From assembly GCA_964203225.1 (NCBI GenBank), contig CAXNMK010000002.1:481664-545663 (forward strand): DNA of 64,000 nucleotides. Reading direction: 5' to 3'. The notes below the pieces were generated by a model. That model had not been told where the DNA came from and made no database searches. It saw only the letters and a program-made list of their open reading frames with translations. Each line of letters starts with the position of its first letter. The first letter of the stretch is position 1. This document shows, in pieces, positions 53,330 to 54,701 of the stretch. Source of the stretch: Kofleriaceae bacterium. Its GTDB lineage: Bacteria; Myxococcota_A; Polyangia; Haliangiales; Haliangiaceae. The position numbers and the translations under genes were made by a program.

Positions 53330-53390
53330 TATCATCACAAAAACAGATGTATTCGTTTTATCAAATTATGTGATAAAAAGGTCGTGCGAT
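53330..53390 (+). promoter_or_regulatory. AT-rich promoter/operator island with perfect inverted repeat TTATCA-N7-TGATAA immediately upstream of the wHTH gene
   Basis: tcatcacaaaaacagatgtattcgttttatcaaattatgtgataaaaaggtcgtgcgatg in a ~70% GC context. Confidence 0.5.
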
Positions 53391-54123
53391 GCTGGATTTC
53401 CTCGTCACGTCGAAGGTGCGGCGCCGGCTCCTCTCGTTGCTGTGGGGAGAGGGCGTGCGCGGTTCGGTTGCGGAGCTGGCCGCGCTCGCCGGCGTCGCAT
53501 TCGCGGGTGCGCATGGTGAGCTGAGATCGATGCGCGAGCACCAGCTGGTCGTCGTGGAGCGTGCTGAGGGCAAGGACGTGTACGCCGCCAACCTCGCCCA
53601 CCCGGACGCGAGCACGCTGAAGGCGCTCGTGGCCACCGCTGGTCGACGGACGATGCCTCGCAGCGCCGCCGACGAGACCGTCCGGCGCAAGCTCGTGACC
53701 CTCGGCGCTCCCTTGAGCGGGGTCGTACCGCTGCCCGTGAAGGCGTCGGAGCGGGCGTCGGCGCTGCTCGAGGGGGTGCGGCTCGCACGTCGAGACCCAT
53801 CCGTGGCGAGGGGCTTGCCGCTGTGCGTGTGGACCCTGCGTGACCGCTTGAGCGGCAAGGCGCTTCAGGCCCTGACGCCGCGGGCCGAGGAGAAGCACGC
53901 GCTCGGCTTCTATCTCGAGCTCACGGGCGAGCTTGGCAGCGACCGGCGGCTGGTGGGCCTCGCCGAAGGAATGCGGGATCGGCGCGTCACGGCGCTGCGC
54001 GGCTTCTTTGGTGACGGCGCAGGCGAGCGCGCGCGGCCGTTCCCGCTCGCGAACAAGTGGGGCTTCACGATGAACATGGATCGCGGCTCGTTCGCGACCC
54101 TGTTCGAGAAGTTCGCCGCGTGA
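53389..54123 (+). CDS. winged-HTH protein, AbiEi-like (putative type IV antitoxin/regulator)
   Basis: N-terminal wHTH (SKVRRRLLSLLWGEGVRGSVAELAALAGVAF). 4-bp overlap with the downstream NTase. Confidence 0.5.
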   Translation: MLDFLVTSKVRRRLLSLLWGEGVRGSVAELAALAGVAFAGAHGELRSMREHQLVVVERAEGKDVYAANLAHPDASTLKALVATAGRRTMPRSAADETVRRKLVTLGAPLSGVVPLPVKASERASALLEGVRLARRDPSVARGLPLCVWTLRDRLSGKALQALTPRAEEKHALGFYLELTGELGSDRRLVGLAEGMRDRRVTALRGFFGDGAGERARPFPLANKWGFTMNMDRGSFATLFEKFAA

Positions 54124-54701
54124 CAGCGTATCGGTCGACCCGATCGTTCGGTGCCGCGCAGATCCGTACGTTCCTGGAAGCGGTGGATCGTCACCTCGTC
54201 CGCAGCGTCCGGATCGAGGTGATCGGTGGCAGCGCCGCGGCGCTCGCCCACGGGGCGACTTCGACGACGACCGACCTGGACACCTTCACCTGTACGTCCG
54301 CCGAGCTCGACCGCGCCGTCGCGCACGCGGTGGTGGCGACGGGGTTCGCGATCCCGGTGACGCACGCAGGTGTGGCGGACGTCCCCATCAACTATTCGGA
54401 TCGACTGGAGCGTCACCTGCCGCACCTCGCCCAGCTCGAGGTGTGGGTTCTCGAGAAGCATGACCTCGTGCTCAGCAAGGCCGTGCGCTGCCACGAGCAC
54501 GATCTCCAGCAGCTCCGCGAGATCCATCAGCACGTCGGCCTCTCGGCCGAGGTGCTGGTGCAGCGCTTCGTGGCCGAGATGCAGCACGTGATCGGCGACC
54601 CCGGTCGCCTCCGCGCAGACTTCCTGCTGATGATCGAGGACGTGTTCGGAGAGTTGCCCCGGGTTCAGGCCGAACGTGCGCTGCGCGTGCCGCGAGGCTG
54701 A
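54120..54701 (+). CDS. nucleotidyltransferase-fold protein, AbiEii-like (putative toxin)
   Basis: hhhGG-x-A...G...T-x-D-x-D motif (IEVIGGSAAALAHGATSTTTDLDTF). GTG start overlapping the upstream stop (GTGA). Confidence 0.5.
   Translation: MTAYRSTRSFGAAQIRTFLEAVDRHLVRSVRIEVIGGSAAALAHGATSTTTDLDTFTCTSAELDRAVAHAVVATGFAIPVTHAGVADVPINYSDRLERHLPHLAQLEVWVLEKHDLVLSKAVRCHEHDLQQLREIHQHVGLSAEVLVQRFVAEMQHVIGDPGRLRADFLLMIEDVFGELPRVQAERALRVPRG

Follow-up and report, generated by a model that had tools for sequence, protein, structure and literature searches.

A DUF6036 nucleotidyltransferase gene and its winged-helix partner form a candidate toxin–antitoxin-type cassette in a Kofleriaceae genome

Two overlapping genes behind an AT-rich island

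We analyzed a pair of adjacent genes in a 64 kb stretch of a Kofleriaceae bacterium genome (contig CAXNMK010000002.1), hereafter the window, which is 72.5% GC overall. The pair consists of two same-strand open reading frames (ORFs) within 53389-54701: gene 1, which encodes a putative repressor or antitoxin with a winged helix-turn-helix (HTH) at its N-terminus and a separate C-terminal domain (CTD), and gene 2, which encodes a putative toxin of the DUF6036 nucleotidyltransferase family. The original prediction, made from the DNA letters alone, had read the locus as an AbiEi/AbiEii-like module, possibly a diverged or minimal one, in which a winged-HTH gene and a nucleotidyltransferase gene are translationally coupled behind a palindromic operator. 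The coupled pair behind a palindrome is borne out, and its features are as follows.

53306-53388, no strand: AT-rich island, presumed promoter/operator, containing the lowest-GC 60-nt windows of the 64 kb
53330-53352, no strand: operator-like site TATCATCACAAAAACAGATGTAT, distal and degenerate, lying 26 bp upstream of its proximal counterpart and keeping 7 of 10 core positions
53356-53378, no strand: proximal palindrome and putative operator, TTTTATCAAAT-T-ATGTGATAAAA, its end 11 nt ahead of the ATG, 10/11 complementary
53389-54123, plus strand: gene 1, putative repressor/antitoxin, 244 aa, two domains, ATG at 53389, TGA at 54121-54123
53389-53652, plus strand: gene 1 N-terminal winged HTH, ArsR/MarR-like, approximately residues 1-88
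53674-54120, plus strand: gene 1 CTD, residues 96-244, uncatalogued, predicted helical, the constant DUF6036 partner
54120-54123, plus strand: GTGA start/stop overlap, translational coupling, read from the sequence
54120-54701, plus strand: gene 2, putative toxin, DUF6036 nucleotidyltransferase, MenT-like, 193 aa, GTG start at 54120
54225-54281, plus strand: nucleotidyltransferase motif G36-G37-x-A39...T50-x-D52-x-D54, with the codons of T50 at 54267-54269, D52 at 54273-54275 and D54 at 54279-54281
54477-54503, plus strand: K120-x2-R123-x4-D128 motif, on the helix that follows the last core strand, invariant even in homologues of 25% identity

The GTG of gene 2 lies inside the stop codon of gene 1, as had been predicted, and an RTGA overlap occurs at the same place in at least eight related loci. 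A longer reading of gene 2 is possible from an upstream GTG at 54057. We place the start at 54120 because most homologues are 190-197 aa long.

The nucleotidyltransferase and its constant partner domain

Gene 2 matches PF19502 (DUF6036) at 51.5 bits against a gathering cut-off of 23.6 (E=1.3e-13), over profile positions 13-139 of 164, and this is the sole Pfam family above threshold. The AbiEii assignment that had been proposed for it did not hold: the Pfam scan returned no match to DUF1814/AbiEii (PF08843) at E≤1, the PADLOC AbiEii model reached 13.4 bits (E=0.009) over 64 N-terminal residues only (14-77), and the NCBIfam scan gave no match. All 91 homologues of gene 2, mostly from Kofleriaceae/Myxococcota metagenome bins, fall in PF19502, and they bear the name that NCBI annotation gives the family, ‘DUF6036 family nucleotidyltransferase’. 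Gene 2 is a bona fide member of this family, for which no function has been described.

The minimal nucleotidyltransferase signature expected of gene 2 is present as IGGSAAALAHGATSTTTDLDT. Among 31 homologues, the invariant residues include G36, G37, A39, T50, D52, D54, D115, K120, R123 and D128, so that the catalytic aspartates, when checked in the alignment, proved invariant rather than missing. When eight distant DUF6036 proteins from other phyla are added (25-32% identity), G36, G37, T50, D52, D54, E112, D115, K120, R123 and D128 are still invariant, and A39 is the exception that loses its invariance. By these alignments gene 2 encodes a minimal nucleotidyltransferase of the DUF6036 family with intact catalytic residues.

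MenT/AbiEii toxins extend tRNA 3' ends, poisoning translation, and are switched off by antitoxin-induced auto-phosphorylation. The AlphaFold model of gene 2 is confident (predicted local distance difference test, pLDDT, 93.2), and the solved structures closest to it are MenT1, MenT4 and TglT/MenT3, with antibiotic nucleotidyltransferases ranking lower. By sequence, the gene 2 profile gave chance-level matches only against PDB chains, revealing no solved relative. The T50-x-D52-x-D54 spacing of gene 2 equals the T39-x-D41-x-D43 spacing of MenT1, a protein of the same size that also carries K137 and D152 (PMC11375011). Gene 2 displays the wider pattern of this structural group, hG[GS]...D-x-[DE], in which a Ser/Thr at the phospho-acceptor position precedes the first Asp by two residues and a Lys and an Asp follow downstream. 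We propose that K120 and D128 correspond to MenT1 K137 and D152, judging by position in the fold. In MenT1, T39 is the phospho-acceptor and is auto-phosphorylated when the antitoxin binds (PMC11375011); its counterparts are T65 in AbiEii and S78 in MenT3, and on that ground AbiE has been moved to type VII (bioRxiv 10.64898/2026.01.19.700257). In both fold and active-site layout, gene 2 resembles the MenT/AbiEii toxins.

Gene 1, for which we collected 111 full-length homologues, likewise yielded a well-scoring model (pLDDT 90.5), with a CTD predicted to be almost all-helical. Profile matches of its winged HTH are weak (HTH_20 at E=0.047 in Pfam); its homologues match HTH_20, HVO_A0114 and HTH_IclR more clearly. 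PADLOC matched gene 1 to PDC-M05A (E=3.8e-6, residues 7-82), a match that concerns the HTH only, because PDC-M05A is an ArsR-HTH fused to the MNT nucleotidyltransferase of a HEPN/MNT candidate system. No AbiEi profile, including the COG5340-type and AbiEi HTH profiles, matched gene 1 at E≤1, and the Pfam, PADLOC and NCBIfam scans together with the helical CTD rule out an AbiEi identity. The original description of both proteins as shorter than canonical holds for gene 2 relative to AbiEii and fails for gene 1, which at 244 aa is not shorter than Streptococcus agalactiae AbiEi (195 residues in 6y8q). For the CTD itself, no Pfam family was matched in 21 members, and its profile found only chance-level matches among PDB sequences. 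A broad CTD alignment has G11, L64 and W129 as invariant residues.

The two genes travel together. Our locus survey, which took one genome per species, found 20 loci, and a gene 1 homologue abuts a gene 2 homologue in all 14 of the close Myxococcota loci where this could be tested. Similarity does not extend past the two genes; the loci have unrelated flanks and share no neighboring genes. At distant loci the upstream partner retains the CTD and its head differs: in L016 (Bdellovibrionales) and L018 (Vicinamibacterales) the CTD is joined to an XRE-type HTH, and the L017 partner lacks a DNA-binding domain. The CTD profile recovered 546 proteins from the indexed database in three architectures, namely wHTH-CTD (winged HTH plus CTD, ~245 aa), XRE-CTD (~225 aa) and CTD alone (~150 aa). 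An exhaustive search of 1.84 billion representatives with the same profile returned 1,262 clusters at E≤1e-3, spread over Myxococcota, Acidobacteriota, Bdellovibrionota and others. Five further look-ups (two XRE-CTD proteins, two CTD-alone proteins and one 195-aa CTD protein without a Pfam match) each placed PF19502 directly downstream of the CTD gene, overlapping it or 2 nt apart. Because PF19502 follows all CTD architectures, we regard the CTD as the constant DUF6036 partner and the DNA-binding head as exchangeable. A constant CTD with an exchangeable regulatory head is the pattern expected of a neutralizing domain.

Some loci depart from the intact pair. L015:3528-4536 has a gene 1 without its HTH part and a frameshifted nucleotidyltransferase; L017:3959-4489, in a Myxococcales bin, has a partner made up of the CTD alone, ahead of a DUF6036 gene that is divided between two reading frames; and L022:3001-3815 has a CTD-alone gene followed by a 117-aa DUF6036 remnant without the catalytic N-terminal half. 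L017 also holds an orphan wHTH-CTD gene at 6605-7363 (plus strand) with no adjoining nucleotidyltransferase. Decayed nucleotidyltransferases at these three loci alongside an orphan gene 1 hint weakly at the decay typical of toxin–antitoxin modules. We found no fusion of the CTD to a nucleotidyltransferase among six CTD proteins of unusual length, none of which contained DUF6036 or any other informative match. A 313-aa protein from outside the window, P0315, has two matched CTD stretches (the best at residues 9-152) and no DNA-binding domain, and may be a tandem CTD duplication.

A conserved palindrome upstream of gene 1

The 59 bp before gene 1 (53330-53388) are 30.5% GC, in keeping with the predicted AT-rich island of ~60 bp that is rare in this context. 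The lowest 60-nt window of the 64 kb, at 28.3% GC, lies upstream of gene 1, and the next lowest spot is at 43.3%. The predicted inverted repeat TTATCA-N7-TGATAA is exact at 53358-53376 and sits within the proximal palindrome, whose perfect arms are 8 nt long (TTTTATCA/TGATAAAA). Exact TTATC-N9-GATAA occurs once only in the 64 kb.

An AT-rich stretch lies upstream of every wHTH-type gene 1. In 13 related loci, a 23-mer built on the core TTATC-N9-GATAA begins 29-33 nt ahead of the start codon (once 23 nt). Nine loci, the window and eight relatives, have a second copy another 26 bp upstream (27 bp in one case), and it is well formed in most of the relatives. Of 14 upstream regions, 10 contain exact TATC-N9-GATA, where shuffles predict 0.024. 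It occurs nowhere else within the 15 close loci (L001-L015), and the only other instance among the 20 loci is inside the partner gene of the distant locus L016. Across 23 operator sites, positions 4-7 and 17-20 are nearly fixed and the center is A/T-rich; the inner pair 8/16 is Watson–Crick complementary in 16 of the 23 through four different pair types, indicating covariation. In L013, the site lies between the hexamers TTGACA and TAATAT, the latter 6 nt before the start codon, which is suggestive of leaderless or near-leaderless transcripts in relatives of this kind. That the related loci keep the motif equally far from their start codons strongly backs the idea of an operator. The sequence evidence that the palindrome and its position are conserved is strong, and we regard it as a putative operator that may serve autoregulation. 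As each 23-mer is itself palindromic, binding by a dimer is suggested.

Other versions of the cassette differ upstream. XRE-HTH loci have palindromes of their own: L016:3225-3324 contains a perfect palindrome with 17-nt arms (TTACGATATGTAAAGTT/AACTTTACATATCGTAA), L018:3198-3297 two copies of TTGTAATATTAC, and L023:2901-3000 the arrangement ATATAACA-N5-TGTAATAT. No AT-rich palindrome was found upstream of the CTD-alone gene in L022, where the region is GC-rich, and the same region is also GC-rich in L025, the other CTD-alone locus read. Within the window, the second-lowest GC spot (24755-24814, 43% GC) is found just upstream of an ORF starting near 24818, whose product opens with an Arg/Lys-rich stretch (MVKGTKRRPRW...).

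Relation to known modules and competing explanations

On balance, and by a modest measure, we think it probable that the locus is an autonomous, self-repressed two-gene cassette, a toxin–antitoxin-type module of MenAT/AbiE design with a new antitoxin domain. Gene 1 would be translated first, from the same mRNA as gene 2, and its CTD would bind and neutralize the nucleotidyltransferase. Neutralization may proceed via induced auto-phosphorylation of Thr50, an invariant residue that precedes the first catalytic Asp by two positions; such a step has been shown for MenT1 T39, MenT3 S78 and AbiEii T65. The ArsR-like winged HTH would bind TTATC-N9-GATAA as a dimer, overlapping the promoter, and in relatives would also bind the second copy 26 bp upstream; such binding would repress the operon. 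A more specific version, which we offer tentatively, is that the helical CTD is an unrecognized antitoxin or regulator domain dedicated to DUF6036, and that the two define a new, widespread family of MenT-like modules (~1,260 clusters) in which the head (winged HTH, XRE or none) sets autoregulation and the CTD triggers Thr50 auto-phosphorylation.

The AbiE label originally given to the locus is wrong for family membership and right for design. Profile searches did place the pair outside the AbiE families, and the toxin–antitoxin-like design stands nonetheless. The AbiE pair of Streptococcus agalactiae (AbiEi-AbiEii, COG5340-DUF1814) and MenAT4 (Rv2827c-Rv2826c) differ from the present one in the nucleotidyltransferase: gene 2 falls outside DUF1814/PF08843 and is ~90-100 residues shorter. 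AbiEi has an N-terminal winged HTH, as does gene 1, where it is ArsR/MarR-like. However, the AbiEi CTD combines alpha and beta elements in a nucleotidyltransferase-like fold (one helix, four beta-strands and a bundle of six helices), whereas that of gene 1 is predicted to be all-helical and has no match. The AbiE operator comprises two 23-bp repeats, 3 bp apart and mutually inverted, that each bind a monomer; here each 23-mer is itself palindromic and the two copies are 26 bp apart, so the likeness is one of design and not of sequence.

Similar limits apply to MenAT1 (MenA1-MenT1, Rv0078B/Rv0078A) and the wider MenT proteins of Mycobacterium tuberculosis. Gene 2 has no detectable sequence kinship with them, as its profile finds no PDB chain; its Pfam family is a different one, and any activity on tRNA is putative. 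The partner here is a 244-aa winged-HTH plus CTD protein without an AbiEi-type (COG5340) match. MenA antitoxins are themselves structurally unrelated to one another (PMC11375011). The HEPN/MNT type VII systems, including PDC-M05 (ArsR-HTH-MNT plus HEPN), also combine a small nucleotidyltransferase with a helical partner and have an ArsR-type winged HTH in the module. There, however, the role of antitoxin falls to the nucleotidyltransferase, which also bears the HTH, while here the HTH is on the other protein. In addition, gene 1 has no conserved Rx4-6H RNase motif, the fold of gene 2 is closer to MenT than to MNT, and only the HTH part of M05A in PADLOC's PDC-M05 matches gene 1, with gene 2 matching no PDC-M05 model.

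A different enzymatic role deserves the first hearing among the alternatives, although we consider it unlikely. DUF6036 could adenylylate, or otherwise nucleotidylate, an antibiotic or other small molecule or a different cellular substrate, with gene 1 acting as a ligand-responsive repressor or substrate-binding subunit of an inducible modification or resistance unit. The structural ranking of MenT toxins above antibiotic nucleotidyltransferases speaks against this, as does the Thr at the MenT phospho-acceptor position within the invariant T-x-D-x-D, which has no obvious role in small-molecule nucleotidyltransferases. CTD-alone partners without a DNA-binding domain also argue against it, as they do against the CTD being just the sensor of a repressor, and the unrelated flanks among loci point the same way. 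If the pair is not toxic, the locus is a tidy, ordinary regulator–enzyme cassette.

We judge it improbable that the pair forms a non-toxic signaling circuit in which the nucleotidyltransferase NMPylates the gene 1 CTD to control DNA binding, or the reverse. Small type VII nucleotidyltransferases can modify their partner, as in HEPN/MNT (PMC12988326), the reclassification of AbiE as type VII lends this some plausibility, and the strict, translationally coupled pairing of the genes would suit such a switch. Yet the CTD-alone versions would have nothing to regulate on DNA, and the broad CTD alignment shows no conspicuous invariant Ser, Thr or Tyr.

Reversed polarity as in HEPN/MNT, with the nucleotidyltransferase as antitoxin and the helical CTD of gene 1 as a HEPN-like effector, strikes us as decidedly improbable. 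The resemblance of the gene 1 winged HTH to that fused to the MNT of PDC-M05, the helical CTD and the string RAEEKH (Rx4H) in the window protein would all fit it. That string, however, is not conserved in 38 homologues, where G, T, N, Q or E takes the place of R and Q, N, A or M that of H, which excludes a catalytic HEPN, and no HEPN profile matched gene 1 or the CTD at E≤1. The DNA-binding domain and the first operon position belong to gene 1, as is usual for antitoxins, and the fold of gene 2 matches MenT toxins rather than MNT antitoxins.

Least probable of all is that the palindrome is no protein operator and acts in RNA (as a hairpin in the 5' untranslated region) or arose by chance in an AT-rich promoter: one can draw a hairpin through it, but the fold is no better than those of shuffles (z = -1.0; 25 of 200 fold at least as well), the half-site sequences are conserved beyond mere pairing, two copies recur at the fixed spacing, the enrichment of TATC-N9-GATA far exceeds expectation, and the L013 site, lying between -35 and -10 hexamers, would therefore not be transcribed.

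Several observations weigh against the toxin–antitoxin explanation that we favor. The literature searched held no mention of DUF6036 by name and no experiment on any member, and the CTD, matched to no family by sequence profiles, may still be related in fold to known antitoxin or HEPN-like domains. Neither a standard nor a looser scan found promoter hexamers in the window copy, the looser scan being convincing in L013 only. The function of the distal site in the window is uncertain because only its ATC...GAT core survives there. The frameshifted copies noted above come from metagenome bins and could reflect errors of assembly, and so could the L022 remnant. No relatives were found on IMG/VR viral contigs or, by tblastn, in PLSDB plasmids, and PHROGs gave no match. 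The neighbors in the window are ordinary (an epimerase, a TPR-like protein and an FG-GAP protein), and therefore provide no mobile-element or defense-island support; a role in phage defense, if any, is not indicated.

The module family of DUF6036 and CTD is best described as uncharacterized and fairly widespread, a variant of the nucleotidyltransferase toxin–antitoxin theme, and as far as these tools tell, the obligate partner domain of DUF6036 and the operator are described here first. What is known so far of tRNA extension by such toxins and of their induced auto-phosphorylation comes from the DUF1814 family and a handful of unrelated antitoxins. DUF6036 is a second, uncharacterized nucleotidyltransferase family with the same Thr-x-Asp-x-Asp active site. 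If the cassette is a toxin–antitoxin module, it would bring a new antitoxin fold and ~1,260 module clusters in poorly studied soil and sediment phyla, as well as a direct test of induced auto-phosphorylation as a general means of enzyme control; and if the CTD does trigger Thr50 auto-phosphorylation, this type VII mechanism would extend beyond DUF1814 to a structurally unrelated antitoxin. The motif TTATC-N9-GATAA in two copies 26 bp apart could also serve as a ready-made repressor/operator pair for high-GC Myxococcota.

Scans of 52900-55000 for sigma-70 promoters and terminators found nothing, and no terminator-like hairpin was found between gene 2 and the FG-GAP gene. Upstream of the cassette, a divergent TPR-like ORF occupies 52384-53052 on the minus strand. 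Between it and the AT-rich island lie ~250 bp (53053-53305) of 70-82% GC that hold low-complexity ORFs only, on both strands, and are either an intergenic stretch or part of a mis-delimited gene. Downstream, at 54718-57078 on the minus strand, a gene for a Cys-rich FG-GAP repeat protein of 786 aa, whose N-terminus resembles a signal peptide, converges on gene 2, the two stop codons being 16 bp apart.

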